A stretch of DNA of 64,000 nucleotides, taken from positions 13,173 to 77,172 of the IMG/VR virus record IMGVR_UViG_3300037068_000153; one strand, 5' to 3'. Made by a program: the position numbers and the translations under genes. Shown here piece after piece: positions 16,988 to 51,550 of this stretch; the first letter of the stretch is position 1; every line of letters starts with the position of its first letter. Below the pieces are notes generated by a model. That model saw nothing but the letters and a program-made list of their open reading frames with translations, had not been told where the DNA came from and did not search any database. The stretch comes from a virus.

Positions 16988-19900
16988 CTACCCGTTGATG
17001 TGGTAGCTGACGGTGTAGTAGCCGAGCCCGCTCGGCGTGTTGACGTTGCCGGCGCCCGCGAGCAGCGTCCAGGTCACCGACGTGCGGTTGCAGACCGACT
17101 GGAAGATGGTCGGCAGCGCGGCCGTGGCCGAGCACGGCGAGACGAGGTTGGCGTCCACCTGCGCGAACGTGCGCGGGCCGCCGGGCCAGTCGAAGCGGAT
17201 GGTGGGATTGTTCGTGTACCCCGTCGTGCCCAGGCGCACCGTGAACTGGCCATAGCTGTCCGTGCCGGTGAACGCGGTCAAGCCCCACCCGGTGGCTGTG
17301 CCATAGGCCGCGCCCAGTGCCACGCCCGTGAAGTTGCCGGTCCCGATGGCGGCACCGGCCGACAAGTCGAGCCGCTGCGCCTTCAGGTACGGGTTGGCCT
17401 GGATGCCCGTGCTGGTGACGGCGAGGTAGTTGGTATTGCCGTTGACGTCCTGCACGGCGAAGATCGGCCCGGTCGCCACGCCGCCGCCCATATCGCGCAC
17501 CAGCAGGCCGTACCAGCCCGTCGGACCGACGCCGATGACCTGCGGACCGCTCGCCCCATTGGCGTACGCGTCCTGAAGCGAGCCCGCCAGATCAGTCGAG
17601 TACCAGCTGGTGGCGCCGTCGGAGACCACCATCATGCCGCCGTAGCGCGCCGTCAATGTGAGCCCGGTCGCACCGTTGACGCGGTCGGCGGTAGCTCCCG
17701 TCGAGACCGACAGCATGAAGCCGAGCGGGTTGGCGGAGATGTCCTGGACGCGGATCATCTGCCCGGGGATGAACGTGTTTGCCGCGGGCAGGTGCACGCG
17801 GCGCAGGCCCGAGGCGCCCGTCAGGCCGATGAAGTGGTCAGTGGCGGCCGCGATCGTGTAGGGCGCACCCGTGGGCGACGCCTTCGCCGTGGCGCCGGCC
17901 GACAGGGGGCCCGCGCCATAGAGGCCACCCCAGCGCAGCGCGGTGGACCCTACGGTGTTGCTCACCGTACCGTCTGCCGCTGGCACGACGTGGCCGCTGA
18001 AGGTAGATTGCAAAGCACGAATATCGAGCATCACCGTCGAGAATGCGGCCGTCAGGATCTGGAGGATATCGCCGCCGACTGCGATCTGGAGGTTGCTCGC
18101 TTGGATGATCTGCGTAGTCGCGGCCAAGATCGAGTTGACGAGCTTGACCAGGACGGCCGCCCCGTTGATGTCCGTCGCCATGACTAGCTGCGGGTAACCG
18201 AGGTCGACACGGTTGACCAACTGGGCGTAGTTATTGCCCGTGCCGACCAGAGCCCCGGCGAGCGCCGCGCCCGTCGGGTACACGGCGAGGTAGTTAGTCG
18301 CGCCCGAGACGCCCTGCACCTGGAATAGCGGCCCGGTGGCGCCGCCCGAGTAGTCCTGGATGATCACGCCCAGTCGACCGCTCGTCGTCGGCCCGAGCGC
18401 GATGAACTGCGGCCCGGTGGCGCCGGCGAGGTAGGCGCCCTGCAGCGTGGTCGGCGTCCCACCGCCGCCACCGCCTGCCGGGCCCTGCGGCCCCGTAGGC
18501 CCCGTGGCCCCGGTGACGCCTTGCGCGCCCTGGGGTCCAGTAGGCCCCGTGGGCCCGGTGACACCCTGGGCGCCCGTCGGCCCCGTGGCCCCGGTGACAC
18601 CTTGGGCGCCCGTCGGACCGGTCGCGCCGGTGACGCCCGTCGTGCCGGCCGGGCCGGTCGGTCCCGTCGCGCCCGTGACGCCAGTAGCGCCGACAGGGCC
18701 GGTAGGCCCGAGCGAGGCGAACCAGTTGGACGCGCCGTCGCTCGTCAGAGACCAATTGGCATACGCCACCGTCGAGGTGACCCCCGTGGCGCCGTTGACC
18801 CGGTCGGCGCCGGCGGACTTGATCGCCAGCGCGTTGCCACCGCCGCCGACGTCGCGGACGGCGAGCATCTGCCCTGCGTATAACTGCGCCGCCGCGGGCA
18901 ACTGGACGATGCGATCGCCCGAGGCGCCGGTGACGCCGACGCCAAAGTTGCGCGCGCTCGCCGTCCACCCGCTGGCGGCGCCCATAGCCACCTGCGTCCA
19001 GCCTCCGCCGAGCCCGGCCTGGTTGTAGAGTCCGAGCCAGCGCAGGTTGGTGGCGCCGAGTGGTGCGCCACCGTCCGCCAGCGGGCGCACGGGGACGGTC
19101 GTGTCGATGCGCGCCCCGTCCATGATCGGCGCCTGCGCACCGACCTGCAGCGCGCCGACCTGCACGCCCGACGGCGCCATGGCCCAGTAACTGGTCGAGC
19201 CTGAGGCGTCCTGGCCGGCGAACATGACGCCGCCGGTCGTGCCGCCGCTGGCGTCGCGGATGACGACGCCGAACTTGAGCGCGCTCGTTGGGCCCAGCGC
19301 AATGAACTGCTGCCCGCTCGAGCCCGCGTTGTACGCCTGCTGCAGTGGAACGGCGCCGCCAGCGGGGCCCGTCGTGCCGGTGACGCCTTGGATACCCTGG
19401 CTGCCCGTCGCGCCAGCCGGCCCCGTCGGACCGGTCGCGCCAGCTGGGCCAGTCGGCCCGGTAGCACCGGTGACACCTTGGATACCCTGGGCGCCAGCCC
19501 CCGTGGGTCCCGTTGCGCCAGCGGGCCCCGTGGGGCCAGTAGCTCCCGTAACGCCTTGCGCACCTTGGGATCCGGCGGGGCCAGTCGGACCGGTCGCGCC
19601 CGCTGGGCCCGTAGGTCCAGTAGCACCCGTGACTCCCTGGGTTCCCTGCGCGCCCGCTGGCCCGGTGGCTCCCGTGCTACCTGCCGCACCCGCAACGCCC
19701 GCTGGGCCGGTGGGTCCCGTCGCCCCCGTGGCGCCTTGCACGCCTGCCGGGCCGGTCGCTCCTACTGGTCCGGTAGCGCCCGCTGCACCAGCGCTTCCCG
19801 CGGGCCCCGTAGGTCCGGTGGCACCGGTCGCGCCCGCGGCTCCCGTAGGGCCGGGCGGACCGCCGGCGGGGCCCGTAGGTCCGGTCGTGCCATCGATGCC

Positions 19901-20446
19901 CCGAGTGCCTGTGGCGCCCATTGGCCCGGTAGGTCCAGCTGGGCCCGTCGCGCCCTGCGCACCGGTGGCGCCCTGGGAGAAGGGCAGCTGCGCGGGCAGC
20001 GGATCGACCACGGGCGGGATGGGCAGGAGGAGCTCGGACAAGTACAAGATCGACGGCGGCACGAGCTGGTAGATCGCGCCCGCCACACCATAGCGGCCAG
20101 CGTTGTCAATGAAGGTAACGTCGTGCTGGCCGATGACGTTCGAGTTGCCGGTGCCGCCGGACTGATCGGTGTCCTCGGTGACGAAGGCGAAGGTGGCGAG
20201 CCCGTTGGCGGCGTCGACGAGTGTGCCCGCGCGGACGAAGATGGAGTTGCCGGTGCCGTCCGCCACTGTCCAGACGACGGCGCCGCCAGTCAGGTTGAGG
20301 CGCGAGCCGTCGGAGCGAAAACAGGTGATGGCGACCGAACCGGATGCGGCCCGCTGGAACGTGCGTTGCTGCTGTGACTGGCGGAGCGCGCCCGAGCCCG
20401 CCCCGTCCTCGAGTACACCGGTAAGCGGGGGTAGGACAATCGCCAT
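16988..20446 (-). CDS. collagen-like fibre protein 1 (two G-x-T collagen segments plus repeated globular modules)
   Basis: Long GAT/GPT/GVT triplet runs; N-terminal adaptor-like domain; repeated LQxAYxAG and LPAA..GQM modules. Confidence 0.85.
18477..18709 (-). repeat. collagen G-x-y repeat segment
   Basis: [16 protein letters not shown]... run. Confidence 0.9.
19358..19972 (-). repeat. collagen G-x-y repeat segment
   Basis: [14 protein letters not shown] run. Confidence 0.9.
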
Positions 20447-20458
20447 TACGTGATTCTA

Positions 20459-22603
20459 CTACGTTCGCGCGAGGAGGCGCTCCCACAACTCCGCCACCTT
20501 GTGGCGGCTGTGGGCCTGGGCATGAGCGCACATGGCGTCGGGCGTGCAGAGCTGGCCTTGGAGCACGGCCGCGATCGTCTCGACCCATGCTGACAATTTC
20601 TCGCCGGGACGCCCCGGGATTTTGATCGCCGCGTGGCCATGCACCTCCGCCAACGCGTCGGCGTCGGAGATGATGGGCTGGCACCCAGCCGCGCATGCAT
20701 CGAGGACAGAGCAGCCAAAGCCCTCCGTGTAGCGCACCGGGTCGCACGGGTACGCCAGCACAGTCGCCATGCGCAACTGCCGCGCCATCTCCCGGTTGGC
20801 GACCGGCCCGACGACCTCGATACCCCAGCCTGACGACAGAGTGCGCAGCGCCTCCTCGATGAAGCGCGCCCGGCGACCGACCTCGTCGGGCAGGTCACGC
20901 GCGCGATCGAGCCACGGCGCCAACCGGTAGAAGATCTTGAGCTCAGCTTCGGGCACGCGCGCCCGCACGGCGGGCCACATGGCGAGCAGGTGGTGCAGGC
21001 CGCGGTCGGGGGAGCTGCACCAGACGACGCGGTTGGTGACGCTCGGGTACGCCGAGCCGAATGCGAACAGGTCGATGTCGACGCTGTTGGGAATGATAGC
21101 GTGCATGCGCGCATCCCTCGCGTGCTCCATGACCTCATCGACGGCGTGGTGTTGGCGCGACGACTCCGACGGGAACACGGCCATGTCCGTCAGCATCTTC
21201 CAGTTGGGATTTCGGCAGTAGCCCCAGTCGTTGAGCTGCTGGTCGACGACGCGGAAGACGCCCGGCGGCGCGTGCGCCAGGTAGTCGGGCTCGTTCCACG
21301 CCACCACCGCATCGAGTCCGGGCACGTTGCGCAGCCCCTGTACGGCCTGGATCGGCAGCATGTGCGCGCCCGACTCGTGCTCGTGCGCGGCGACGGCGGG
21401 CGCCAGCACGATGACCTCATGCCCGCGCTCGGCCAACGTGCGCGCGAGGTTGAAGAAGCTGCCCTCGCTTCCGGTCAGCGCGGCGTCGCCGAGCTTGGCG
21501 AAGTCGAACGGGCCGTGAATGGCCGAGCTGAACTCGCCGTAGATCATCGCCACGCGGAGCTTGCGCGGTAGCACCGACAGCTTGCCGGGCGCCGTGCCCT
21601 CGTCGGAGAACTCGGCCGCAGTAGAGGTGAGCTCCGGCACCACCGGCGGGGAGACCGGGGGTAGGTCAGCGGCGGCGCCGGAGCTCGAGAGCAGGATAGC
21701 ACGGCGCTCCCGAAGGCTCCATTTGTTGACCGACGGGTAGCCGGCCGCCCGCTTGGAGTGCCAGATCTTCTCGTTCTCGCGCACGCCGCGCAGCCGCTTG
21801 AGCATCGGGAAGATACCGCGCGGGTTGGCGACCTCGACGACGAGCGAGGGGTCGAGAAACCACTGCACCCCGGCGGCACTCGTCAGGCGCGCGGCGAAGT
21901 CGGAGTCTTGGTAACCGTGTCCGCCGTCGAGGTCCTCGTCGAAGCCGTTGACCTCCAAACAGCGCTCGAGCCGCACCGACTCGCCCTTGGCGTGGAAGAA
22001 GACGGAGTCGATGGGCCCGGCCGCCATACGTAGCTTGGGGTCGGCGTCCGCCGTCGCGCGCCCGCCGCCATCCACGGTGTGCCCGGCGTCGGCGCGCTCG
22101 GACGGCTGACCGATAGAGACCATCCAGTCGTCGAGATATCCGCGTTCGAGGTCGCGCTGGTAGCGCTCCAGGTCGGACGCGGCATAGCGCAGGTTGAACT
22201 TCGCGGCTATCTCCAGCGCCACGTAGCGGTGCGGTGACATGAGCCCGGCGCGGCCGACGCTCGCGTCCGCGCGATGGAAGGCGGCGTGCAGCGCCAGCAG
22301 CCTCGGCGGCGGCCGTGAATAGTCGGTCAGGAACAGCGCCACTTCGCCCGACGCCGCAGCCAGCCCCGCGTTGGCGCAGGCGCAGTAACTGGCGACGGGG
22401 AAGGGATTGGTCCGGGGCTCGACGTGCACGACGCGCAGGAAGCGGTCGCGCGCCTCCTCCGCCACCTTGGCGGCGCGGTGGCGCTTGAGCACGTCGACCA
22501 GCACCAGCTCGAAGTCGGTGTGCGTCTGCGCGGCAAGCGCGTCGAGCAGCACGTCGACGCCGCCGGCACGGTAGGTCGGGACGATGACGGAGAGGAAAGG
22601 CAC
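20459..22603 (-). CDS. GT2 + GT4 glycosyltransferase fusion
   Basis: N-terminal FLSVIVPTYR...FELVLVD...NGFDED (GT-A fold); C-terminal GSEGS, SSPDRGL, EGFGCSVLDA (GT-B fold). Confidence 0.88.
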   Translation of the reverse strand: MPFLSVIVPTYRAGGVDVLLDALAAQTHTDFELVLVDVLKRHRAAKVAEEARDRFLRVVHVEPRTNPFPVASYCACANAGLAAASGEVALFLTDYSRPPPRLLALHAAFHRADASVGRAGLMSPHRYVALEIAAKFNLRYAASDLERYQRDLERGYLDDWMVSIGQPSERADAGHTVDGGGRATADADPKLRMAAGPIDSVFFHAKGESVRLERCLEVNGFDEDLDGGHGYQDSDFAARLTSAAGVQWFLDPSLVVEVANPRGIFPMLKRLRGVRENEKIWHSKRAAGYPSVNKWSLRERRAILLSSSGAAADLPPVSPPVVPELTSTAAEFSDEGTAPGKLSVLPRKLRVAMIYGEFSSAIHGPFDFAKLGDAALTGSEGSFFNLARTLAERGHEVIVLAPAVAAHEHESGAHMLPIQAVQGLRNVPGLDAVVAWNEPDYLAHAPPGVFRVVDQQLNDWGYCRNPNWKMLTDMAVFPSESSRQHHAVDEVMEHARDARMHAIIPNSVDIDLFAFGSAYPSVTNRVVWCSSPDRGLHHLLAMWPAVRARVPEAELKIFYRLAPWLDRARDLPDEVGRRARFIEEALRTLSSGWGIEVVGPVANREMARQLRMATVLAYPCDPVRYTEGFGCSVLDACAAGCQPIISDADALAEVHGHAAIKIPGRPGEKLSAWVETIAAVLQGQLCTPDAMCAHAQAHSRHKVAELWERLLART

Positions 22604-22605
22604 GA

Positions 22606-22908
22606 CTACTTCCGACCCCGCCAATCATCGATCTCCGCGAGCCGCTTCTCCAGCTCTGCGACGCGCTCCTCCAACTTCACCTTCTCCGGGTCAGCGCAAT
22701 CGGGCGTCTTCATGAGCGCATCGAGTTTCCTGGCGGCGGCGACCGCCTCCTTGAAATCGGCGATCAGCTTGCGCAGCTCTTCCATGTCAATCAACGGCTG
22801 GAGAATTTTCGTCCAGTCTGTTGGTGACGCTCGCAAAACGTCGAGACCATCGACAGGCGCCGGGAAGAGAGGCTTGTAGTAGTCCATCACGTTGGAGATG
22901 ACGCACAT
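22606..22908 (-). CDS. hypothetical coiled-coil protein
   Basis: Fills the gap in the operon. Confidence 0.55.
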   Translation of the reverse strand: MCVISNVMDYYKPLFPAPVDGLDVLRASPTDWTKILQPLIDMEELRKLIADFKEAVAAARKLDALMKTPDCADPEKVKLEERVAELEKRLAEIDDWRGRK

Positions 22909-22919
22909 TGCTCGCGCTC

Positions 22920-23540
22920 CTACTTGAGAGTTTCGAGGGTCAGTTCGTACCAGACCGCCGGCCCATGCACGTTGATCCGCTGCGCCTTCGGGAAGCCGTG
23001 CGCCGCCAGCGCCTCGCGCAGCGTCTCCTCCGTGTAACCGGCGCAGTGCTTGTCAAAGTCGGCCAACGTCTGCTGCTCCTCGTGCACGCCGCAAACCGCG
23101 CAGGGCACAAAGGCTGCGCTTCGCCCCTCGTGCTGCATCCGCGCGCGGGCGGCCTGGCACGAGAGGCAATCGCGCAGGGGCAGCGCTCCCTGCTCTCCCC
23201 AGACCAGCTCCGCCAGCCGCGGGTCGCGCGGGTCGGCCAGCCATCGGCGCATGACCTCGCGCATGTCCACCTCGCCCACGACCAACCGGCCGCCCGGGCG
23301 CAGCACGCGGCGGACGTCGTCGAGCACGCGGCCGTGGTGGTGTGGGGCGAGGTGCAGGAGGAGGTACCCGGCGTAGACCTCGACCACAGACTCATCGGGG
23401 AAGGGGATATCCTGTGAGCGCGCGTCCCAGACGACATCGCAGCCGCGCCGCGCCAGCGGCCACTTGGCGACCACGTCGAGGTTGACCCAACCGTCGCGAA
23501 TGTCGGTCCCGCTGGCGAGGTTAAGGCGCAGCGGCTGCAT
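22920..23540 (-). CDS. class I SAM-dependent methyltransferase with Zn-ribbon insert
   Basis: RLNLASG..GWVNLD, PFPDESV, RRVLRPGGRL; CLSC..CAVC insert. Confidence 0.82.
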   Translation of the reverse strand: MQPLRLNLASGTDIRDGWVNLDVVAKWPLARRGCDVVWDARSQDIPFPDESVVEVYAGYLLLHLAPHHHGRVLDDVRRVLRPGGRLVVGEVDMREVMRRWLADPRDPRLAELVWGEQGALPLRDCLSCQAARARMQHEGRSAAFVPCAVCGVHEEQQTLADFDKHCAGYTEETLREALAAHGFPKAQRINVHGPAVWYELTLETLK

Positions 23541-23788
23541 CAATTCACCTTCTTTTCGTCGACGGCTCGCAGCGCCCGCGACATACGCACCTGCGCCTCG
23601 TATTGCTTCCAGTTGAGCGCGATGGCGTCGTCGGTAAGTTTGCTTTGTCGCTCGTGCGCGGCTAACCAAAAATCGCACTGCTGACGCCAGAAATCGCGAT
23701 CCTTCTGGTCGTCCCTTCGCCACTGGTACTCGCGCCACCAGCACAGGACGGAGACGCAAAGGCATAAGAGCATGAATTCGCGCGACAC
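23540..23788 (-). CDS. small membrane-anchored protein
   Basis: Hydrophobic N-terminus plus helix. Confidence 0.5.
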   Translation of the reverse strand: MSREFMLLCLCVSVLCWWREYQWRRDDQKDRDFWRQQCDFWLAAHERQSKLTDDAIALNWKQYEAQVRMSRALRAVDEKKVN

Positions 23789-24598
23789 CTACTTCGTCTC
23801 CGGCGGCAGCCACTGCTTGCGGCCGCCCGCGTGCAAGAGGACGTTGTTGACGCCCTCGCACGCCTCGAGCACGCGCTGCGGGACGCCCTGCATGCGGCCC
23901 AGCTCGACGAGCGCGCGCATGTCCTTAGGGAAGCACGTCCCGCCGTAGCCGCGATAGCCGTCGGTGTCGACGTCGAGGTAACCGGGGCCGACGCGCGGGT
24001 CGGCCTCCGCCATGCGCTTGACCTCGTTGTATGAGACGCCCATCGCCTCGCACAGGTCGAAGATCTGATTGGCGAACGTGATACGCATCGACAGGAAGCA
24101 GTTGGAGAAGTACTTGACGAACTCCGCTTGCCGCCGCGTGGCCACCGACGTGAACGGCGCGCGCGGCAGGATGGCGAGCACGTCCCGGGCGGCAGCGTCC
24201 TGGCCCGAGCCGCAGCCGACGATCTGCCGGTCGGGCTCGACGAAATCCTGGTAGGCACAGCGCTCGCGCAAGAACTCGGGGTTGAAGAGCAAGGTATGCT
24301 GAGGGAATTTCTCTTGGAGGTAGTCGGTCGTCCCCGGCAGCACAGTAGACTTGACCACCACCACCTTGGACCCTGGCACTACCGCCACCGCCGCGCGCAC
24401 GAACGAGTCGTCGAACCCGTCGGGCCCATACGGTGTCGGGACGCAGACGAAGGCAACGTCGACGCGCTCGAGGTCCGCCACCACGCCGATGCCCTTGGGC
24501 GGGTCGTACTCGACGACGGTAAAACGTGCATCACCCTTGAAGTAGCGCGAGACGGCGCCGCCCACGAAGCCGACGCCCATGATGCCGATTGTTCTCAT
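23789..24598 (-). CDS. ugd: UDP-glucose/GDP-mannose dehydrogenase family (lacks C-terminal domain)
   Basis: GVGFVG, VCVPTP, KSTVLPGTT, NPEFLRE, KYFSN, GYGGTCFPKD. Confidence 0.9.
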   Translation of the reverse strand: MRTIGIMGVGFVGGAVSRYFKGDARFTVVEYDPPKGIGVVADLERVDVAFVCVPTPYGPDGFDDSFVRAAVAVVPGSKVVVVKSTVLPGTTDYLQEKFPQHTLLFNPEFLRERCAYQDFVEPDRQIVGCGSGQDAAARDVLAILPRAPFTSVATRRQAEFVKYFSNCFLSMRITFANQIFDLCEAMGVSYNEVKRMAEADPRVGPGYLDVDTDGYRGYGGTCFPKDMRALVELGRMQGVPQRVLEACEGVNNVLLHAGGRKQWLPPETK

Positions 24599-25680
24599 TT
24601 GACCCCCTCGTAGACCTTCTGCAGCTCCGTCTCGTTCTCCGCCGCCCAGCGCAGCACACGGTCCGAGCCCTCCTCGACGTTGACCAACGGGCGCCAGCCC
24701 GTCGCTTCCGTGAAGCGCGAGTGATCGACAAACACGAGCTGATCTTCGTGCTTGCGGCCGGGCGCCTCAACAATCCTGCAGCCCGTCATCCCCTGCACCT
24801 TGATCGCCATGCGCATCACGCTGGTGACGTTCTTGTACCCGCCGCCGATGTTGAACACCTTGCCCGTGATCGACTTGTCCATCTTCGCGTCGATCTCAGA
24901 CCACGACGTCGAGAGGACGCGTTCTGCCTGGAGGTTTCGAATAGCCGCCCAGCACGCGCTGGCGACGTCCGAGCCGTAGAGCATGTCGCGCGCCTGCGCG
25001 CCACCGCCCTGTACTTCGATATCTCGCCCCATGGCGCCAGCGATGCAGAACCACGTCAGCCACCCGTGGCGCGGGCCGTGGCACGGCGCTGGGCCGTAGA
25101 GGTTCGAGCAACGCAGCGTGACGACGGGCAGGTCGTACGAGCGCGCCCACGCCATGGCGAGCATCGACTGCGCCGCCTTCGATGCGGCGTAGGGCTCGTC
25201 GGGGGCGAGCTGATCGGTTTCCTTTAGTCCACCATGCCATTGCATCTGGCTGGACTGCTGTCCGCAAAGCGGATCGCCATCTTGATCCAAGAAGCCAGAG
25301 GTTGCATACGGCTTCACGCTCGACAGCACGACCGTCGGCAGTGGGTGCTTACGGAGCGCGTCGAGCAGCACTTTGGTGGCGTCGACGTTCGAGGCCCAGT
25401 CGTCGTCGGGGTGGAGCGCGCTGTGTGGGATGCCGGTCGATGCGGCGGCGTGGATGACGGCGTCGCAGTACGGAAGGATATCGCGGAGTGAATTCGCGCT
25501 GTATTCTAGGCAATCAAAATGGATTTCAGGATCATATTTTAACCGTAACTGATTCGCGATCCACTGGTTTCGTTCTTCTGCAGCCGAATCGATGATGACA
25601 ACCTCGTGTCCCTCATCGAATAGTGAGCGCGCGATCTGCGAGCCAATGCACCCGAGCCCTCCCGTCACGAGCACTCTCAT
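24595..25680 (-). CDS. NAD-dependent NDP-sugar epimerase (CDP-paratose 2-epimerase-like)
   Basis: VTGGLGCIGS, PYAASK, LRCSNLYGP, HGWLTWF, QARDMLY. Confidence 0.8.
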   Translation of the reverse strand: MRVLVTGGLGCIGSQIARSLFDEGHEVVIIDSAAEERNQWIANQLRLKYDPEIHFDCLEYSANSLRDILPYCDAVIHAAASTGIPHSALHPDDDWASNVDATKVLLDALRKHPLPTVVLSSVKPYATSGFLDQDGDPLCGQQSSQMQWHGGLKETDQLAPDEPYAASKAAQSMLAMAWARSYDLPVVTLRCSNLYGPAPCHGPRHGWLTWFCIAGAMGRDIEVQGGGAQARDMLYGSDVASACWAAIRNLQAERVLSTSWSEIDAKMDKSITGKVFNIGGGYKNVTSVMRMAIKVQGMTGCRIVEAPGRKHEDQLVFVDHSRFTEATGWRPLVNVEEGSDRVLRWAAENETELQKVYEGVK

Positions 25681-25838
25681 CGGCGCGTCTTCCAGCTCGC
25701 GGCCTTCTCGCAGGCGATCGAGCACTGCTGGCCGATCGTCATCGTTCCGCACTCCGTGCACGGTTGGCGCGGGCACCTACAGTCTGAGGTGAGCCCACCC
25801 ATCCGCGGCGTCAGACACTGCGGTCTATGTCGCTTCAT
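25677..25838 (-). CDS. small Cys-rich protein
   Basis: ATGA-coupled; CRC..CTECG..CSIAC. Confidence 0.45.
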   Translation of the reverse strand: MKRHRPQCLTPRMGGLTSDCRCPRQPCTECGTMTIGQQCSIACEKAASWKTRR

Positions 25839-27316
25839 CGTCCGACCTCCACATATCTCGGCAGAGGATTCGCCGCCAACTCGCTCGCGACACCTCGGAA
25901 CATCGCTTCCCACTCGGCGGCGCGCGACCGCCAGCTCAGGTCGGCGAGCGCGTCCACGCGCGCGGGCTCCGCGATCGAGCGCCGCCACGCGTCGTCAGTC
26001 AGCGCGCGGACGCACAGCTCGACGAACTCCTGTGGGCTGCCTGCGAGCGCACCGTGCTTCACGGTCTCGGCAAGGGCGGCGATGCCCGAGTGCACCGCGA
26101 CGCAGCCGGCGGCCTGCGCCTCCATCGCGCTGATGCACGACGTCTCCGTGAACTGCGTCCAGTGCGGCCAGACCTTGGCGCGCAAGAACGCGTCGGCGAG
26201 CTCGCGCTGGTTGACCCGCCCGTGCAGGTGGATGCCCGAGCCCGGGTGCGCGCGCTCGGTCAAAAATTTCTTGAACGCCTCGATCTGCGCTAGCTCGTCA
26301 GTGGCACCGCGGGCGCGCGCGAATGCCTCCCAGCAGTCGAAGCCGTAGTAAACGTGCAGCTCCGCGTCGGGCACTCGCGCGCGGATGAAGGGGAAGTTAT
26401 GCACCAGCGTGTCGAGCCCGCGGTTGGGCGACGACGAGAAAACGAGGTGATTTTTCTTGTACGGACCGTCGGTAAGGTCGAGACCAAATCGCTCCGGGTT
26501 GATGCCGTTGCGCGTGACGAGCACGCGGTCGGGGTCGAGGCCCGGGTAGGTCGAAACGAAGTGGTCCTTGTGCCAGCGGCTGAGGCACAGGATGCGGTCG
26601 AAGCGCATGATCCAGCGCTGCATCTGTGGCGAGTCGGGGCCGACGTTGACGTCGTGCACCCATAGAAGCTTGACCCGCGCCTGTACGTCTCCGGGGCGCT
26701 CCATGATGGCGGCCTGGCGCGAGGAAATGAAAATGTCGCACTCGATGGGCGCGCGGGCGTTTTGCCACTGCACATAGCAGACGCCATCGAAGATGTTGCC
26801 GTGGCCACCGGGCAGCTCGCCAAACACCGTTACGTCGTGCCCGAGCGCCGCCAGCTCGCGCGCCATCTCGATGCACGCCGTCTCGCTGCCGCCGATGCCG
26901 CGCGTCTCGGGCGTGGTCGGGTCCCACGGCTCGATGGCGGGGCCGACCCAAAAGACGATTCGCTGCTTGCTCGCGTGATAGAAGAGCGCTGTCGTCTCCC
27001 CCTCGTTCGTAGTCTCGAATGTGCCGGACACGCTGGCCGGACGCTTCGCGTCGTCTAGCTGGATTCTCAGCCCAGATGACTTGAGCCAGCCGTCATCGCG
27101 TTCGCCGTGTTTGGCCGTCGCCAACGCCATTCGGTTGACGATAGCGTCGTTGCGGATGGACTTCGGCATCGCGTCGAGGAACTTGAGCGCTCGCGCGTTG
27201 TTCTTGTCGACGTGCACCAACTGCTTCCACAGCTGCATGGCGTAGATGACGTAGGCGTCGGGGTTCTGCTGCACCGGCGGCGCGTCGAGGTCCTCGAACT
27301 TGGTGAACTCCACCAT
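25835..27316 (-). CDS. GT4 glycosyltransferase (possibly the C-terminal part of the upstream gene)
   Basis: GIGGSETA, LWVHD, NGI, SSSPNRGL, ETSCISAMEAQAAG. Confidence 0.85.
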   Translation of the reverse strand: MVEFTKFEDLDAPPVQQNPDAYVIYAMQLWKQLVHVDKNNARALKFLDAMPKSIRNDAIVNRMALATAKHGERDDGWLKSSGLRIQLDDAKRPASVSGTFETTNEGETTALFYHASKQRIVFWVGPAIEPWDPTTPETRGIGGSETACIEMARELAALGHDVTVFGELPGGHGNIFDGVCYVQWQNARAPIECDIFISSRQAAIMERPGDVQARVKLLWVHDVNVGPDSPQMQRWIMRFDRILCLSRWHKDHFVSTYPGLDPDRVLVTRNGINPERFGLDLTDGPYKKNHLVFSSSPNRGLDTLVHNFPFIRARVPDAELHVYYGFDCWEAFARARGATDELAQIEAFKKFLTERAHPGSGIHLHGRVNQRELADAFLRAKVWPHWTQFTETSCISAMEAQAAGCVAVHSGIAALAETVKHGALAGSPQEFVELCVRALTDDAWRRSIAEPARVDALADLSWRSRAAEWEAMFRGVASELAANPLPRYVEVGR

Positions 27317-28568
27317 CGGCTTCGACTGCGCAGGTGGGGGCGCTGCGCCGCGCCAGCTCGGCCTCATAGCTGGCGAGGTTGTACTTGAGCATGCCCGGCG
27401 CGCCGCCGGCGACGCCCGGGTCGTCCGGGCAGGCCGCGAGCCCCGCCTTGCACGACGCGATCGCCTCCTCGAGCCGGCCCATGAGCGCCAGCGCATGGTT
27501 GAGATAGATGTGCGGCCGATACGTGCGGTCGAGCGGGTTGGCGCCCAGCATCGAGTCGGTATTGCCGATCTTCATCGCCCGCTCGGTATACGCGACGCAG
27601 TCGGGGTGCCGGCCGCGCAGGTAGGCGATCCGCGCCAGCCCGAAGAGGCCGTCGGGGTTGTCGGGCATCTCCATCGCCGCCGTCGCGTACTCACGGTTGG
27701 CCCGATTGTACGAGTCCTCGGGCGCGCCGCCGAGCTGACCGAATTCCAGCATGGAGCCCAGTGCCACGTGCGCCGCCGCCCTCTCCTCGCACCAGCCCGA
27801 GCGCTTGAGGTAGTCCTCGTAGAACTCGGCGCTCTTGTGCGGTTCGACCCAGCGCGCTTCCTGCCCGAGGTAGAAGAGAGTGCGCGGATCGACCACGGCG
27901 CCGTTGGCGCGGTCGGCCGCCAGCTGGCGCAGGAGGATCTTGTAGTTGCGGTTGGGGACCGTCTTGCGGTCGGCCTTGCGTCGGTGGATGTTGGTGATGC
28001 CCTCGTAGCGCCACGATTGCACGAAGCGCGTCGGCATGAGCACTTCATGCACAGGGTTGACCCATACCGCCGCACCGGCGCGTACGACGCGCTCGCGCCA
28101 CTGGCGATAGAAAGTACGCCCCTTGTCGTCGCGCGCGTAGTCGTAAGCCAGGAAGCCGAGGTCCAGGTTGCGCGCGCGCATGTCGGCGACGACCTGGCGC
28201 AGCTTGTCCGCCCCCTCGACCACGTCGTCGGAGTCCATCCAGTAGATGAACTCGCCGCGCGCCATCGAGAAGGACTTGCGGCGGGCGGCGCCGAAGTCGC
28301 CCAGCATGATCTCGCCGGTGTAGGGCGCCGGCGCCCCGAACGCGCCGCACGTCGCCTCGTCGTCGCGGAAGAACGCCTCGGGGTTGGTCTCGGGCGTGAA
28401 GAGCCCGACGCGCGCGCCATGGCGCTCCGCCACCGCGGTCGTGGCGTCGGTCGAGCCCGTGTCGACCACCACGATCTCGTCGGCGCAGTCGCGCACGGAG
28501 GTGAGCGCGGCGTCGAGGTTCTGCTCCTCGTCCTTCGCGATGAGGCAGATGGAGAGCTCGACCGTCAT
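27093..28568 (-). CDS. GT2 glycosyltransferase with TPR repeats
   Basis: LSICLIAKDEE, VVDTGSTD, WMDSDD, VHE, followed by TPR-like helices (FYLGQE..). Confidence 0.88.
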   Translation of the reverse strand: MTVELSICLIAKDEEQNLDAALTSVRDCADEIVVVDTGSTDATTAVAERHGARVGLFTPETNPEAFFRDDEATCGAFGAPAPYTGEIMLGDFGAARRKSFSMARGEFIYWMDSDDVVEGADKLRQVVADMRARNLDLGFLAYDYARDDKGRTFYRQWRERVVRAGAAVWVNPVHEVLMPTRFVQSWRYEGITNIHRRKADRKTVPNRNYKILLRQLAADRANGAVVDPRTLFYLGQEARWVEPHKSAEFYEDYLKRSGWCEERAAAHVALGSMLEFGQLGGAPEDSYNRANREYATAAMEMPDNPDGLFGLARIAYLRGRHPDCVAYTERAMKIGNTDSMLGANPLDRTYRPHIYLNHALALMGRLEEAIASCKAGLAACPDDPGVAGGAPGMLKYNLASYEAELARRSAPTCAVEADGGVHQVRGPRRAAGAAEPRRLRHLRHAAVEAVGARRQEQRASAQVPRRDAEVHPQRRYRQPNGVGDGQTRRTR

Positions 28569-28825
28569 TTCTTCTCCGATTTTTTCAGGTGCGCGTTGAT
28601 GGCCTGGCGGATCCAGTCCGAGGGCTTCTTGTCGACGCGTAGCGCCGCGCGTCGCAACCGTCCCCATGTCTCAGGATCGACGCGGAAGGTGCACCACTTC
28701 GATTTCGTTAGCGGTTCGAAACCGTCATCGAAATCACCGATGTCATCTTGCCCTTTGATACTGAAACTGGCGCTTGGTGTATCGCCAGGATCAAATATTT
28801 CTTCGCTGATGCGCTTGCGGGGCAT
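28565..28825 (-). CDS. ribbon-helix-helix DNA-binding protein
   Basis: KWCTFRVDPETWGRLRRAA..KPSDWIRQAI pattern. Confidence 0.7.
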   Translation of the reverse strand: MPRKRISEEIFDPGDTPSASFSIKGQDDIGDFDDGFEPLTKSKWCTFRVDPETWGRLRRAALRVDKKPSDWIRQAINAHLKKSEKK

Positions 28826-28873: not shown

Positions 28874-30505
28874 CTAGAGCGTGAGCCAGTTGCATAGCTG
28901 CGTCGACCCGCCGCGCGCCATGAACCCGCGAGAGCCGAACGCGCTGCTCAATACGTAGCCGCTGGGCGAATCGTCGACGAGACCGGAGACGCCGCGGACG
29001 AGCACGGGGTAGCTGGCGCCCACGCCGCCGGCGCCGTCTTTGACCAGATGCACGGCCCCCGTAGGCGTACCGCTGGCGCCTAAGAAAACGCTGAGGGATG
29101 CGCCGGTGCTCATGATGATGATCGCATAGTCGCCCGGGATCGCCGTGTAGTGGGTCGAGATCCAGCGCGTCTGCAGCACGGCGCCGCCGATATAGTCCAT
29201 GCGCAACCCGCTCGATCCAGCGGTGTTGCCGAAATAGCCCGCCAGCCCGGTGGGACCTGTTGGACCCTGCGGCCCCGTAAATCCTGTCGCGCCGGCGGGC
29301 CCTGTAGCGCCCGTGACGCCGACCGCGCCCGTGTTGCCGCGGGGGCCGACCGCTCCCCCGGGGCCCGTGGGGCCGGTCGCGCCCGTCGCGCCGGCGGGAC
29401 CCGTAGGTCCGGTGACGCCGCGAGCGCCGACCGCGCCGGCGGGACCTGTAGGGCCAGTTACGCCCGTCGCTCCGGCCGGGCCCGTAGGGCCTGTGTTACC
29501 GCGGGGGCCGACCGCTCCCCCGGGGCCCGTCGGGCCGGTCGCACCGGTGAAGCCCTGGGGACCGGTGGGTCCCGTGACACCGCGCGCTCCGGTTGGGCCC
29601 GTAGCGCCGGTGACGCCTGCGGGGCCAGTCGGCCCCGTCGCTCCGGTGACACCGGTGCTCCCTCGCGGGCCCGTCGGGCCAGTCGCGCCCGTCGCGCCGG
29701 CCGGACCCGTAGGGCCCGTCGCACCGGTGACGCCCTGCGCGCCCGTGTTGCCGCGCGGGCCCGTGGGGCCGGTCGCGCCGGTAGCTCCGGCCGGGCCTGT
29801 CGGACCGGTCGCGCCCTGCAGACCCGTGACGCCCGTAGCACCGACGCCGGTCGCGCCGCGCGGGCCCGTGGGTCCAGTCGCGCCGGCGCCGCCGTGCTGC
29901 CCGATATAGGCCCAGCCCGTCGCCACCTGAAGCAGGCTGGCGTTGATTGGGCTGTGCGTGACCCCCTGCACCGTGGCGCGGAAGGTCGAAACGGCGGTGG
30001 CGCCGAACGTGGGGTCGTTCGCCTGCACGGCGTCGTTGAGGTTGTAGCCGCTCGTGCCGCCCGACCAGAAGCCAGGCAGCCAATGAAGGCCGAACACGAC
30101 CGGCACGGCCGGCGGGGTGGTCACAACGTCGGTGAAGAGCGATTGCGACGTGAGGACGACGAAGGGCGAGGAGACCAGCAGCTGTTCGCGGGTGTTGTCC
30201 GCCCGCGTGAGCACGACGTCGACGAGGTACGGCCCCGCGGGCTTCTCGACCGTGTCCGTCGAGACGACGGAGAAGATGACGTTGCCGCTGGTCGGGTCGC
30301 CGCCGACGAAGCCTGTGTACATGCGCGCGAAAAGCAGTACGCCCTGCTGGTCGCGCACCGACATGACGACGGCGAGCGCGCCGGTCATGTCGACCGCTGT
30401 GCTGTCGACGAAGGCCAGGTGGAAGTCGCGGTCCTCCCCCTGCGCGACCTCGAGCTCTTGCGCAGTGCCGACGCTGATGGTGAGTCCGGTTACACGTGCG
30501 GCCAT
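28874..30505 (-). CDS. collagen-like fibre protein 2 with BppU-like N-terminal domain
   Basis: About 215 aa of GAT/GPT/GVT/GPR triplets (approx. 29240-29890); N-terminal QGEDRDF..VDMTGA. Confidence 0.85.
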
Positions 30506-32314: not shown

Positions 32315-33412
32315 TTAGTGCGCGAACCACGCGCTGGAGTGGTCGCAGTAGAGGGTCTTGGATCCATAAACGGCGGCGATCGTGGCCGTCGCTGCGCCAT
32401 TGATCGTGTCGCCGCCGTTGGCGTTGATCGTGATGGTGCCCGATGAGTTGCCCACGTCCTGCACGATGATCTCCTGCCCGACTTTGATGCACGTCGATGC
32501 GGCGGGCAGGTTCACGGTGCGCGATCCCGTCCCGCTCACGCCGATGAAGTGGTCGGTGATCGCCGCGGTGATGACCGAGGACGCTGTGCGGTAGTTCGTG
32601 GCGAAGCCGCCGAAACCCTGTATCCCGTTGGCGTCGAATTGGGCGAATTGCGCACCGAAGCTGCTATTGAATATCTGAAAAACATCGCCGCCGGACGCGA
32701 GCTGCAAGACTGATCCGGCGATCCATTTCGTGAGCGTCGCGGCGACCGTATTATGAAACTCCAACACGTCGGGAGATCCGTTGACGTTGCTGGTGATCAC
32801 CACGCGATGGTTGTCGCCAGAATCGGTGGGCACGATCGCGAATCGCGCCGTACCGCTCGAATTTTGCGTCTCGAAGAGGTCCCCCGACTGCGACGGCGAG
32901 TTGGCTTTGACGTAGAGCCCCTTGTTGGCGTCGGCCCCACACAAAAGCCCGAGAGGGCCGCCGCTCACCGTCTCGGTTATGGTGCCCCCGCTGGAGCCCC
33001 CAGCCGTGTACGCGCTCTGGAGAGTCCCGGTGATCGTGCAGTCGGTGCGACTCGACCCTGAGTTGTCGGCGCAGGCGACGCCGGCGCCGGTAAAATTAAG
33101 GGTCGATCGCTGCGTCAAGCTCGATCCCTCGTCCGCCAGCGTGGTATAGGCTGCGCCGCTGCCCGTGCTCACCTGCGAGTCGACGTTGGTCGCGCTCGTA
33201 TACATATAAGCCCCGTCGGAGCACCGCACCCAGCTGCGCGCGCGGCCGACGGGAATGGGTGCGGAGGTCTGGCAGATGTAGCGCACGCCAGCGCCGACCG
33301 AGACGGCGCTGTTGTCGGGGTTGGCGGTGGCGCCCGCGGGGCGCGAGACGCCCCAGTTGACGGCCAGCATCGCCAGTGCGATCGAGACAGCGATAGTCAG
33401 ATAGTTCCGCAT
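32315..33412 (-). CDS. fibre-like protein with N-terminal signal-peptide-like segment
   Basis: MRNYLTIAVSIALAMLAVNWGVSRPAGA; LNFTGAGV; shares the LPAA..GQ..DTING module with fibre 1. Confidence 0.6.
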   Translation of the reverse strand: MRNYLTIAVSIALAMLAVNWGVSRPAGATANPDNSAVSVGAGVRYICQTSAPIPVGRARSWVRCSDGAYMYTSATNVDSQVSTGSGAAYTTLADEGSSLTQRSTLNFTGAGVACADNSGSSRTDCTITGTLQSAYTAGGSSGGTITETVSGGPLGLLCGADANKGLYVKANSPSQSGDLFETQNSSGTARFAIVPTDSGDNHRVVITSNVNGSPDVLEFHNTVAATLTKWIAGSVLQLASGGDVFQIFNSSFGAQFAQFDANGIQGFGGFATNYRTASSVITAAITDHFIGVSGTGSRTVNLPAASTCIKVGQEIIVQDVGNSSGTITINANGGDTINGAATATIAAVYGSKTLYCDHSSAWFAH

Positions 33413-33435: not shown

Positions 33436-34515
<1,080 letters not shown>

Positions 34516-41337: not shown

Positions 41338-41694
41338 CTACTTGGCGAGGAGCCCTTCGCCCTTGAGCGCGTTGACGACGTCGGTGATCGTATAGTAGTT
41401 CGCGCCCGTACCGCCGTTGGACCTAATGTCGAAGAAGGTCGATCCGGTCACGCCGCCACCGGCCGCGCTACCCGTCGCACCGAGACCCGTCGGCTGCTGC
41501 ACGCCGGTGGCGCCGAAGAAGCCCAGGATGCCGGTCGGCATGCCGATCGACAACGCGGCCGGAAAGCGCGCGCCGGTCGGGCCAGTGAAGACGGAGGCCG
41601 AGCCCCAGCCCCTCAGCCAGTGGTAAAGCGGCTGGAGCCACTCGTGGGTCGTGATGGGGACGCCTGCGTATCCGGTGGGTGCCTGCATGGTCAT
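41338..41694 (-). CDS. small G-x-T-G-rich virion fibre/decoration-like protein
   Basis: AGGAG SD; many PTG/ATG/VTG motifs; C-terminal DVVNALKGEGLL. Confidence 0.6.
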   Translation of the reverse strand: MTMQAPTGYAGVPITTHEWLQPLYHWLRGWGSASVFTGPTGARFPAALSIGMPTGILGFFGATGVQQPTGLGATGSAAGGGVTGSTFFDIRSNGGTGANYYTITDVVNALKGEGLLAK

Positions 41695-41740
41695 TCTCCT
41701 CGGGCCACCTCTTACCAGCTAGCCCTTGGTAGCGTTGCGT

Positions 41741-41983
41741 TTATCGGTTCTTCTCTCGCTGGCGCCGCTGCTCCTCGGCGTCGTCCTCAGCCGCCTCGTC
41801 TTGCGCGTCGAGCAGGTCATTGGCCATGAGGATGCGCTCACGGCTCAGCGTCGGAACATCGCCCAACGTGCACCACTTCCGCATCACGAGCCGGTAGACG
41901 GGCCAGGGCTGGACGTGTTTGACGTCGCGGAGCTTCCGCCCGCCGCGGGGCGGTCGCGCAACGCGCGGGCAAGGTCGAAAAAA
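41741..41983 (-). CDS. tail assembly chaperone -1 frameshift extension (gpGT-like)
   Basis: T TTT TTC heptamer at 41983-41977; the -1 frame is open to TAA 41741 (..WPVYRLV..TLGDV..ANDLLDAQ). Confidence 0.75.
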   Translation of the reverse strand, partial: FFRPCPRVARPPRGGRKLRDVKHVQPWPVYRLVMRKWCTLGDVPTLSRERILMANDLLDAQDEAAEDDAEEQRRQREKNR

Positions 41984-42369
41984 TCGGGGTAGCTCACCCT
42001 CACGGCATGGATGAGCAGGCGCCAGGTGTCGAGCGTGCGGCGCTGCAGGAGCACGTGGATCGGCTCGCCGGCGGCGCCCTGGTAGAGCAGCGTCCCGTTC
42101 ATCGTCGCGCCCGTGAGCAGCGTGCGCATGATGTACTTGAGGTCGTCGGGCGACAGCTTGCCGACCATGCTCTGCACGATCGGGCCGACCTTGGCGGCGA
42201 TCGCTGCCGCGTCAAAGCCTTCACCAACCGTCTCGTTGAGCGCGCCGGCGGCCATGACGAAGTCGACCACCAGCGGCAGCAGCTTCGGCTGCAAAAGGAA
42301 GCTCGCCTCGCCCCCGAGGGGGGAGACGGTAAAGACGTCGTTGCCGAGCTTGAGGGACGTGTCGACCAT
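41884..42369 (-). CDS. tail assembly chaperone
   Basis: Between tube and tape measure; ends YPDFF at the slippery site. Confidence 0.78.
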   Translation of the reverse strand: MVDTSLKLGNDVFTVSPLGGEASFLLQPKLLPLVVDFVMAAGALNETVGEGFDAAAIAAKVGPIVQSMVGKLSPDDLKYIMRTLLTGATMNGTLLYQGAAGEPIHVLLQRRTLDTWRLLIHAVRVSYPDFFDLARALRDRPAAGGSSATSNTSSPGPSTGS

Positions 42370-42804: not shown

Positions 42805-42813
42805 CGGTGCTCC

Positions 42814-44373: not shown

Positions 44374-44404
44374 GCTTTACATGTACCGTGCCGAATGTGT
44401 CACA
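44374..44404 (-). promoter_or_regulatory. late-type promoter element TGTGACAC-N11-TACATGTAAAGC-ATG
   Basis: Near-identical element with the same spacing at 51551-51581. Confidence 0.6.
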
Positions 44405-44415
44405 ATCTAGCGCAC

Positions 44416-45392: not shown

Positions 45393-45401
45393 AGCCCGAT
45401 G

Positions 45402-45893: not shown

Positions 45894-45899
45894 CGGCGG

Positions 45900-46895: not shown

Positions 46896-46898
46896 CGA

Positions 46899-47420
46899 CT
46901 AGCGCCCCGCCGCCGCCGGGCCGCCCTCGGGCTTGACGTCGAGCTCGCGGATGCGATTGTCGAGCAGCAGCCGCACCTCGGGCCGCCCCTCGCTCGCCAG
47001 CCACCCGCGGAGCGTGCTCAAGACGAAGGTCTCGTCGATGAGCAGCTTGGCGACCTCGGGCTTGAGCGCCTTCAGCGGCAGCTCCTTGTCGACCTGCAGC
47101 GGCACCTTCTTGCCGTCCTTGCCGTCGACCTCGAGGGTCGCCAGGATGGTCGAGCCCACCTTCTCGGGGTTGTTTTCGGGCGCCAGACTGCGCTCGATCT
47201 TGGTCGTGAAATACCGCGCGAAAGCCTCGTTCTTGCCGAGCGCCTCGATGTCGGCCACATCGACAAGGTTCGCCCCGGGCAATAGCGTCACGACGCGGTT
47301 GATCGGGATGCCGCCGCCCTTGACCTTCTTCAGGAGCTCGGGGTCGGGCTGCAGCTGCCCCTGGACGAGCGACTCGCGGTTGTTGATGACGACGATGGCC
47401 TGGGTCTGCGCAGTTTGCAT
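46899..47420 (-). CDS. hypothetical head-associated protein
   Basis: Follows the capsid gene; own promoter TTGACA-N17-GATTCT-N6-ATG. Confidence 0.65.
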   Translation of the reverse strand: MQTAQTQAIVVINNRESLVQGQLQPDPELLKKVKGGGIPINRVVTLLPGANLVDVADIEALGKNEAFARYFTTKIERSLAPENNPEKVGSTILATLEVDGKDGKKVPLQVDKELPLKALKPEVAKLLIDETFVLSTLRGWLASEGRPEVRLLLDNRIRELDVKPEGGPAAAGR

Positions 47421-47462
47421 ACGCCCAGAATCGCGCGTGAAATCGCACGTGTCAAGCGCACC

Positions 47463-47488
47463 AAAAGCAACGGCCCCTTTCGGGGCCG
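47463..47488 (-). terminator. Rho-independent terminator after major capsid gene
   Basis: CGGCCCC-GAAA-GGGGCCG hairpin followed by TTGCTTTT on the minus strand. Confidence 0.7.
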
Positions 47489-47533
47489 CGCGGCCCTACC
47501 GCCGAGGCGATAGGGGAAGTATCAAAATTGCCT

Positions 47534-48586: not shown

Positions 48587-48595
48587 TGGCGCTCC

Positions 48596-49198
48596 TTAGA
48601 ACGACCGGTTGGTGAAGTCGGTCTCGAGGATCGCCACCTTCGTGACGCCGTCGGCCGCGGTGTAGGTGCCCGAGCGGAACACGCCCTGGCGGGTGCAGTC
48701 GATCATGTACGACGAGCCCGTGCCCGCCGCGTTGTAGCCCGTGCCCGCCCAGATACCCTGAATGTTGGCGGAACTCGACGTGCCGGTGGCGATGCCGCGG
48801 CACCAGGCGCGGTCGCCCGCGACGACGGCGATCTCGACGGGGACAATGAATCGGCCCTCGCGTCCCACCTGCATGCCCGCGTTGGGCAAGAGGCCCGAGC
48901 CGCCGAGGTCGCCAGCGAAGTTGCCGGCCGGGTCGGCGGCGCCCTGCTTCATATGGTTGTAGGAGAAGACGTTGATGCCCGCCACCTCCATCCCGGGCGA
49001 ACCACCCGAGAAGCCCGAGGCGAGCAAGAAGCCGTCGCCGTTCGAGCCCGGCTGCACGCGCACGCCGAGGCCGAAGCCGATCTGGTTGGTCGCCTCCTTG
49101 TTGAAGCCGGAGACGATATCGCGCCCCTCGGCCGAGTCGGCAACTTGGCCGGCGAGGCCGATTGCCTGGCCGCCGGCGGAAACGGTGGTCTGCGACAT
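48596..49198 (-). CDS. capsid decoration / cement protein
   Basis: LAGQVAD..IGFGLGV; lies between the protease and capsid genes. Confidence 0.72.
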   Translation of the reverse strand: MSQTTVSAGGQAIGLAGQVADSAEGRDIVSGFNKEATNQIGFGLGVRVQPGSNGDGFLLASGFSGGSPGMEVAGINVFSYNHMKQGAADPAGNFAGDLGGSGLLPNAGMQVGREGRFIVPVEIAVVAGDRAWCRGIATGTSSSANIQGIWAGTGYNAAGTGSSYMIDCTRQGVFRSGTYTAADGVTKVAILETDFTNRSF

Positions 49199-49207
49199 GG
49201 CCGGCTC

Positions 49208-50956: not shown

Positions 50957-51231
50957 CGGTCGTCTGTCCTGTTAACGCGCGAGGCCGCGCAACGCCGCGC
51001 ACACTTGCCCTCGTCGTCGAGCACGTCGTCGCACCACGGGCAGCGCGGTCGCGCCTCGTCGACCACGACGTCGCCCTCGACCAGAGGGCCGCCATCAGCG
51101 TCGCGGCGAACGCGCCCCTGCGCCAGCAATTCGCGCACGTCCGGGCTCATCGCGGCTTCGGCTTGGGCTGCGGTTTGACCTTCGGCTTGACGTGCCTGAT
51201 ACGCTCGACCATCACGCGTTCGGGCTCGCAT
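50953..51231 (-). CDS. small Zn-finger hypothetical protein
   Basis: CPWC..CARRC; coupled to the next gene. Confidence 0.45.
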   Translation of the reverse strand: MRARTRDGRAYQARQAEGQTAAQAEAAMSPDVRELLAQGRVRRDADGGPLVEGDVVVDEARPRCPWCDDVLDDEGKCARRCAASRVNRTDDR

Positions 51232-51550
51232 AGACGCGGACGCTGACGACGCCGCCCGTCGTATTGCAGATGCTGACCACGGTCTGCTGCCCGGCGGGGT
51301 TCACCGCGCACGGGAAGGGGCCATAGATGCCGGTCGAGTCGATGATGGCCCCACGCGCCGCGCTCGTCTGGAAGGTCGCGCCCGTGGAGCCCGTGGCGTT
51401 GCCGAATTCGAACAGCACACCCGGCTGACTCGCCACAAGGTAGAGCGCCTTGGCCCCTGGTGGGATAGCGAAGCCGCCCGACTGCTGGTTGTTGACCGCG
51501 ACGCCGGCCGCGCCGCCGCTCGGACCAGTAATCGAGCCCAAAAAGTACAT
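51212..51550 (-). CDS. small beta-rich protein with G-x-T-G motifs (virion candidate)
   Basis: First gene after the conserved late element; ITGPSG, NATGSTGAT. Confidence 0.6.
   Translation of the reverse strand: MYFLGSITGPSGGAAGVAVNNQQSGGFAIPPGAKALYLVASQPGVLFEFGNATGSTGATFQTSAARGAIIDSTGIYGPFPCAVNPAGQQTVVSICNTTGGVVSVRVYASPNA

Follow-up and report, generated by a model that had tools for sequence, protein, structure and literature searches.

G-x-(T/S)-G motifs outside the collagen stalks of a phage's tail fibres: conserved module positions and candidate glycosylation acceptors

A phage that encodes collagen-like tail fibres next to a set of glycan genes raises the question of which residues of its virion, if any, receive the glycan. 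The DNA analyzed here, called the window, is a stretch of 64,000 nucleotides (bases 13173-77172) that makes up most of the virus record IMGVR_UViG_3300037068_000153 (77,172 bp, 67% GC). It encodes two fibre proteins with collagen stalks, fibre 1 and fibre 2, and between them a glycan locus that includes a family 2 glycosyltransferase with tetratricopeptide repeats (GT2-TPR). An earlier note on this sequence reported that the motif G-x-(T/S)-G is seeded through the globular parts of both fibres and through three other proteins (p359, p118, and p112), and proposed that it tags a set of virion proteins for the phage glycosyltransferase (GT). All of the peptides it quoted are indeed encoded there, on the minus strand.

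To count the motif outside collagen, runs of at least five G-x-y triplets were masked and the remaining residues were compared with residue shuffles (30,000 for fibre 1, fibre 2, p118, p359, and p112, and 2,000 for other proteins). The motif and the protein set had both been picked after the sequence was seen. Fibre 1 contains 15 matches to G.[TS]G, with 3.0 expected, and 20 matches to [APV][TS]G, with 5.7 expected (p=3e-5 for each). In p118, the respective counts are 5 vs 0.8 expected (p=4e-4) and 7 vs 0.9 (p=3e-5). The enrichment is marginal in fibre 2 (4 vs 0.9, p=0.012, and 6 vs 1.9, p=0.009), where some matches touch the edges of collagen runs, and in p359 (6 vs 2.8, p=0.05, and 8 vs 2.75, p=0.004). 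It is not significant in p112 over the 30,000 shuffles (2 vs 0.5, p=0.07, and 2 vs 1.0, p=0.25). None of the other 27 proteins tested with 2,000 shuffles was enriched, including sheath, tube, capsid, tape measure, baseplate, the GT enzymes, p424, and p365. Thus, the claimed enrichment holds against shuffled controls in fibre 1 and p118, is borderline in fibre 2 and p359, and fails in p112.

Shuffling within windows of 12 residues, by which the local composition is kept, gave the same picture, with p ~0.001 for fibre 1 and p118. No such excess exists for the mirror motifs G[TS], G[TS].G, and G[TS][APV], and the signal is therefore directional. An unbiased dipeptide scan of the earlier note's protein set identified TG as the most over-represented dipeptide (51 vs 24.8, z=6.3), followed by GA, AT, and PT; GT, NG, and DG are not enriched in this set. 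Across the rest of the phage proteome, the figures for TG are 100 vs 86 (z=1.6). When only one copy of each repeated fibre 1 module is kept, G.[TS]G still reaches 7 vs 2.0 (p=0.003) and [APV][TS]G 10 vs 3.8 (p=0.004). The enrichment outside the collagen runs is real and directional, and it acts at the level of the protein, not as a DNA motif. A DNA-level cause was rejected, as the hexamer AC[CG]GG[CGT] occurs almost only in frame 0 and the codon pairs vary. A relic collagen register was also rejected for fibre 1, where neither G..G nor G..G..G periodicity is enriched.

The collagen stalks have a restricted vocabulary. Both fibres contain long G-x-y runs that score above the Pfam cut-off for the collagen triple-helix repeat (PF01391). 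Together they comprise 171 triplets, in which X is P, A, or V and Y is Thr in 99 (58% G-x-T). Outside collagen, the residue that precedes [TS]G is A in 25 and P in 14 of about 81 cases. Fibre 1 consists of an N-terminal domain, a collagen run, modules A1 and B1, a second collagen run, A2, a middle region, B2, A3, and a C-terminal module C. Module A has about 65 residues, starts with LQxAY, follows each collagen run, and is present in three copies. Module B, in two copies of about 90 residues, carries G-h-TGASG, then LPAA, and then NG-a-TG.

Homologues of these modules from other samples (P0007-P0013, P0018, L002, L012, and L029-L031) are 39-74% identical and retain the motif columns: G-a-S-G, GPTG, v-ATGP, and PTG in module A; PTG, G-x-TGASG, ATG, and NG-a-TG in module B; and TATGW, TGTD, and GTTGY in module C. 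In an alignment of eight sequences, S11-G12, T37-G38-P39, and T58-G59 of module A and T105-G106 and T120-G121 of module C are invariant. The sole substitution at the motif positions of the modules is between T and S, and a nearby turn of module A varies freely between S, N, and G. Judged from these alignments, the motifs are conserved module positions and not scattered tags or insertions. In several respects, the idea of tags seeded through a set of small virion proteins thus fails, p112 being not significant. The earlier note had also described the enrichment as protein-specific; the paralogue p365 has modules A and B and is not enriched.

Eight of the homologues (P0007-P0013 and P0018) were each tested, and outside collagen all had about 3.5-8 times the expected number of G.[TS]G. 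Seven of them contain collagen, and P0007 (346 amino acids) does not. Among 73 control fibres, nearly all of them collagen-free, TG has z=1.0 and G.[TS]G reaches just 1.3 times expectation. A contig scan with P0013 yielded matches to the collagen repeat only. Neither Pfam nor PHROGs contains the collagen-associated fibre modules. A distant, free-standing homologue of module C (126 amino acids, L032:24-404), encoded on a contig of 45% GC without collagen, adjoins genes that do not look like phage genes; therefore, module C is also found outside collagen fibres.

The small protein p118 provides the second strong signal. It carries seven [APV]TG motifs, with Gly following 9 of its 15 Thr residues, and its loop peptide is FFGATGVQQPTGLGATG. 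It belongs to a small conserved family, and 138 members were recovered when 1.84 billion representatives were searched with a profile. The last ~70 residues form a domain that terminates 74 long proteins of fibre- or baseplate-like type and accounts for most of the length of 64 small ones. The consensus of this domain is LGF[YF]GATPV.QP ... NGGTG..YT..D[IV]V.ALK.LGL[LI]. Free-standing forms have 70-140 residues and are encoded in phage structural modules; in phages of ~35 kb, a form of 100 residues is encoded directly 3' of the major capsid gene. Pfam, PHROGs, NCBIfam, a PDB profile search, and a fold search all yielded no match to the domain, and tblastn against cultured phages gave no match for p118, the fibre 1 C-terminus, P0013, P0030, or P0045. 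As judged by these searches, the p118-type domain is a widespread and undescribed fibre C-terminal domain. In p118 and its close relatives, Gly takes the place of a P, S, or T of the family consensus (GATP became GATG, and QPSS became QPTG). Three positions of this clade have turned to Gly exactly after T or S, and for [APV][TS]G p118 is among the top 0.7% of the 138 representatives.

The p118-type domain also occurs at the end of a fibre. The fibre 2 homologue of the related phage G002 (P0018; L038, G002:C1:19298-22501) shares the N-terminal domain and the collagen stalk with fibre 2 of the window (28874-30505) and ends in a p118-type domain, where the latter ends in a module-B-like domain instead.

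Comparison with homologues from phages that lack GT genes had been suggested in the earlier note, and for the p118 domain it can be made. A degenerate DNA pattern for this domain detected 23 viral loci. The motif-rich form, with 4-5 matches in 70 residues, is restricted to relatives of the window phage, namely L040, L045 (in G002), L054 (in G001), and L059. Of these, L040 and L059 are short fragments, and the check for a glycan locus covers the other two. The other 19 of the 23 loci hold 0-2 motifs, including four contigs of 62-66% GC, and a GC-content effect on the domain was rejected on the basis of these contigs. Fifteen of the 19 motif-poor records were searched, among them three complete genomes with terminal repeats and the four high-GC contigs, and no GT2, GT1-type, or collagen gene was found in any of them. 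The genomes G000, G001, and G002, in which the motif-rich form is present, all have a GT2-TPR gene, a GT1-type gene, and collagen fibres. A metagenome scan gave close relatives only, all with the same glycan genes. The comparison thus turned out as predicted for the p118 domain (0-2 vs 4-5 motifs), within a single clade. For p359, the G002 homologue is enriched and the homologue of G001, a phage that does carry the GT locus, is not, which points the other way.

The GT2-TPR protein encoded beside fibre 2 is a plausible candidate for an initiating protein O-glycosyltransferase of the SgtA/GmaR type. It matches Pfam Glycos_transf_2 (E=3e-15) and has a DSD sequence (DxD motif) in its translation, as in GT-A enzymes. 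Its C-terminal part matches TPR_19 with 27.1 bits, above the 25-bit cut-off, as well as several weaker TPR families. The best relatives with a solved structure are GmaR (E=2.5e-9, over residues 36-82 only, the start of the GT domain) and SunS (E=1e-4, residues 122-290). No NCBIfam model reaches its cut-off, and the similarity is partial and under any equivalog cut-off. Its Atlas neighbours are clusters of TPR-containing GT2 proteins, mostly viral. The same glycan locus adjoins a fibre in the relatives G001, G002, L027, and L030.

In the window, GT2-TPR and the GT4 gene are two overlapping open reading frames (ORFs; 25835-28667, minus strand). Because G002 and G001 have a single open frame here (982 and 1038 residues, respectively), the split may represent either a frameshift, caused by a sequencing error or acting as a switch, or a genuinely split gene.

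Enzymes of this type are known from other systems. SgtA of Clostridioides difficile consists of a GT-A domain and TPR, and its gene adjoins the collagen-like bclA3 (PMC7157674). Its substrates include short peptides such as TGATGLIGPTGATGA and the single-site DGATG and DGASG, in which it attaches O-linked N-acetylglucosamine (O-GlcNAc) to Thr or Ser, and it accepts GATG, GPTG, and GASG peptides (PMC7157674). Since SgtA modifies short peptides, G-x-T/S-G as the acceptor of such an enzyme is established biochemistry, in another system, and a folded triple helix is unnecessary there. In the exosporium system of BclA/BclA3 and SgtA (C. difficile and Bacillus), G-x-T collagen triplets are O-glycosylated on Thr. 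The phage GT2-TPR resembles SgtA in that a GT-A domain is followed by TPR and the gene lies beside a collagen-like gene, a comparison of architecture and not of sequence. In contrast to that system, the one in the window is encoded by a phage, its collagen proteins are tail fibres, its triplet recurs in a small protein made of a free-standing domain and in conserved loops of modules other than collagen, and its locus adds genes for nucleotide-sugar synthesis and tailoring.

The other two relatives, Listeria GmaR (a flagellin O-GlcNAc transferase) and Bacillus SunS (a peptide S-glycosyltransferase), act on proteins or peptides and not on lipids. They differ in that their substrates are flagellin or a lantibiotic-like peptide, and we know of no G-x-T-G acceptor for either enzyme. 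Mycobacteriophages are said to encode glycosyltransferases thought to modify their own virion proteins, which is similar to the situation considered here; however, their targets are reportedly capsid and tail-tube proteins, not collagen-like fibres, and a G-x-T-G motif is reportedly not involved. Giant viruses encode both collagen-like surface fibrils and their own glycosylation machinery, a combination also present in the window phage, but they have eukaryotic hosts and use other enzymes and linkages. To our knowledge, bacterial cytoplasmic O-glycosylation mostly proceeds without defined sequons, and we know of very little work on how phages glycosylate their own virions.

From these data, a possible mechanism can be outlined. 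The additional G-[A/P/V]-[T/S]-G would be the triplet of the collagen stalk, placed in conserved loops of the stalk-attached globular modules and of the p118-type domain. GT2-TPR would act as a protein-directed O-glycosyltransferase of the SgtA/GmaR type in the cytoplasm, on newly made chains, and would transfer the first sugar to Thr or Ser of G-x-T/S-G in both collagen runs and module loops. Other GTs and sugar-tailoring enzymes of the locus would then extend the glycan, and the glycan coat of the fibre would therefore continue over its globular parts. That the motif serves as a glycosylation acceptor in use is our tentative preference, held at somewhat below even confidence; we infer the action of the enzyme, the acceptor role, and the occupancy of the non-collagen copies from sequence. 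The complete scheme, with one acceptor G-[A/P/V]-[T/S]-G, an SgtA/GmaR-like GT2-TPR, and a phage glycan on stalks, module loops, and the small free-standing fibre-domain protein, is a more doubtful proposition. Glycosylation would explain why the motif shares the vocabulary of collagen, why its hydroxyl residue is strictly retained, why the p118 domain gained Gly after T or S in this clade, and why the pattern is absent from GT-less homologues and control fibres.

A structural explanation is almost as likely, and the two are not mutually exclusive. Here, [A/P]-[T/S]-G would be loop or turn residues that the fibre modules and the p118 subfamily need for folding or for packing as trimers, co-occurrence with GT genes would reflect shared inheritance in one clade, and glycosylation, if any, would be confined to the stalks. 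This would account for the strict positional conservation, the partial retention in L032, and the lack of enrichment in p365 and in the p359 homologue of G001. Several results weigh against an acceptor role. The motif positions are the best-conserved module columns, (near-)invariant across 40-50% identical homologues and located between predicted strands, which suits a structural role at least equally. Duplicated modules account for much of the fibre 1 signal. The L032 homologue keeps three [TS]G positions without collagen, and GGTG alone is conserved throughout the 138 p118-family representatives, irrespective of GT genes. p365 combines modules A and B with no collagen and no G-x-[TS]-G enrichment in the same phage as the GT locus, and the p359 homologue of G001 has TG 6 vs GT 8. 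G000, G001, and G002 form one clade; their link to the GT locus effectively counts as one evolutionary event, and all positive evidence comes from this clade. Every module relative with readable context has glycan genes, so the fibre modules offer no GT-less control. Avoidance of the motif in non-target phage proteins was looked for and none was seen. Structure models are too poor to judge exposure, as the predicted local distance difference test (pLDDT) score is 43 for the fibre 1 C-terminus and 66.6 for p118, which is modelled mostly as coil with two helices. No glycan has been observed, and a glycan on the virion proteins is an unproven prediction. A purely structural origin, however, has its own difficulties. 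Generic turns would also use N-G, D-G, and G-G, whereas here the hydroxyl residue is strictly kept and the preceding residue copies the X of collagen. The p118 clade gained its three Gly exactly after T or S, and neither the control fibres nor the GT-less homologues, high-GC ones included, are enriched. The proposal that the motifs are acceptor tags for the phage GT survives in part: neither of the two computational tests named in the earlier note refuted it, and the enrichment and the domain architecture of the enzyme fit it, but the evidence comes from one clade and a structural role fits too.

Two further explanations appear improbable. One is that the signal stems from selection bias, from the composition of G/T/A/P-rich proteins, or from collagen spilling over at run edges and short interruptions. 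The lack of significance in p112, the marginal values of fibre 2 and p359, the several fibre 2 matches at or between collagen runs, and the drop of fibre 1 to p=0.003 after collapsing duplicated modules would all be expected from it. It is at odds with the low p values of fibre 1 and p118 in both whole-protein and 12-residue shuffles, with the flat mirror motifs, with TG as the top dipeptide of an unbiased scan, with the lack of G..G periodicity in fibre 1, and with the repetition of the pattern in independent homologues. This explanation is largely refuted for fibre 1 and p118 and stands for p112. The other is that the motif serves a different purpose, for example as the target of a nearby modification enzyme or as a contact between fibre modules and p118. 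The locus does encode a B12-binding radical S-adenosylmethionine (SAM) enzyme and an FkbM-type methyltransferase, and the p118-type domain is a fibre C-terminus in G002 and free-standing in the window phage. Both enzymes are more simply read as sugar-tailoring, though, and specific evidence for this purpose is absent.

If the acceptor role is correct, the motif would be a defined O-glycosylation sequon of a bacteriophage virion, and its acceptor sites would have evolved within folded domains. Glycosites of phage fibres would be predictable from sequence if G-x-T/S-G is the acceptor of GT2-TPR, and the enzyme could serve as a simple means of glycosylating proteins at chosen sites. Studies could then also address how fibre glycosylation affects host recognition, stability, or the immune recognition of phages. 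Should the motif be structural instead, it would be a useful signature for the widespread fibre modules that accompany collagen and for the undescribed p118-type domain.

The window phage is of the myovirus type, and its structural operon is located on the minus strand. It comprises head genes (protease/scaffold, cement protein of family PF22758, and major capsid protein) and tail genes (sheath, tube, chaperone, and tape measure), and baseplate genes are followed by fibre genes. An FkbM methyltransferase, the B12-binding radical SAM enzyme, and a second epimerase are encoded 3' of fibre 1 on the same strand. The positions of the features discussed are listed in Table 1.

Table 1. Location of the fibre, glycan, and motif-bearing features in the window (position 1 is its first base)
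Feature	Position	Strand	Description
Fibre 1	16988..20446	minus	1152 aa; Pfam Collagen E=1.3e-34
Fibre 2	28874..30505	minus	543 aa; collagen at aa 202-428; module-B-like C-terminal domain; Collagen E=2.9e-30
p365	32315..33412	minus	fibre paralogue, modules A and B
p359	33436..34515	minus	glycine-rich; encoded after baseplate genes
p118	41338..41694	minus	118 aa; free-standing copy of fibre C-terminal domain
p112	51212..51550	minus	small conserved protein, upstream of head protease/scaffold gene
GT2-TPR glycosyltransferase	27323..28667	minus	Glycos_transf_2 and TPR_19
Remaining glycan locus between fibres	20459..27496	minus	GT2+GT1 fusion, methyltransferase, uridine diphosphate (UDP)-glucose dehydrogenase-like gene, epimerase/dehydratase, GT4
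First collagen region, fibre 1	19352..19972	minus	aa 159-365, two one-residue breaks
Second collagen run, fibre 1	18458..18709	minus	aa 580-663
Module A, copy 1	19139..19348	minus	aa 367-436; starts LQxAY; G-x-S-G, GPT, TTG, PSG
Module A, copy 2	18239..18448	minus	aa 667-736; GATG, GPT, GGATGP, PTG
Module A, copy 3	17381..17581	minus	aa 956-1022; GASG, GPTG, VATGP, STG
Module B, copy 1	18713..18994	minus	aa 485-578; GVTGASG, then LPAA, then NGATG
Module B, copy 2	17591..17896	minus	aa 851-952; PTG, GLTGASG, STGAT, NGATG
Module C (fibre 1 C-terminal domain)	16991..17380	minus	aa 1023-1152; TATGW, FTGTD, GTTGY, PSG

Some minor observations concern the fibre proteins and their neighbours. The public gene call for fibre 1 (P0006) is a product of 745 residues that starts internally, compared with the ORF of 1152 residues; therefore, the N-terminal domain and the first collagen region may be absent from database entries. 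The N-terminus of p365 is hydrophobic and resembles a signal peptide or a transmembrane segment, which is unusual in a tail fibre paralogue. A 200-residue protein encoded between the capsid and protease/scaffold genes (48596-49198, minus strand) matches the cement family PF22758 (E217 gp24 / Pam3 gp6). A gap of 190 nucleotides separates p118 from the tail assembly chaperone (41884-42369), and an open frame extends across it in a different reading frame (41695-41990, minus strand). This frame continues from the 3' end of the chaperone gene, has an acidic tail (...DAQDEAAEDDAEEQRRQREKNR) at its own end, and looks like the usual extension of a tail chaperone by programmed frameshifting.

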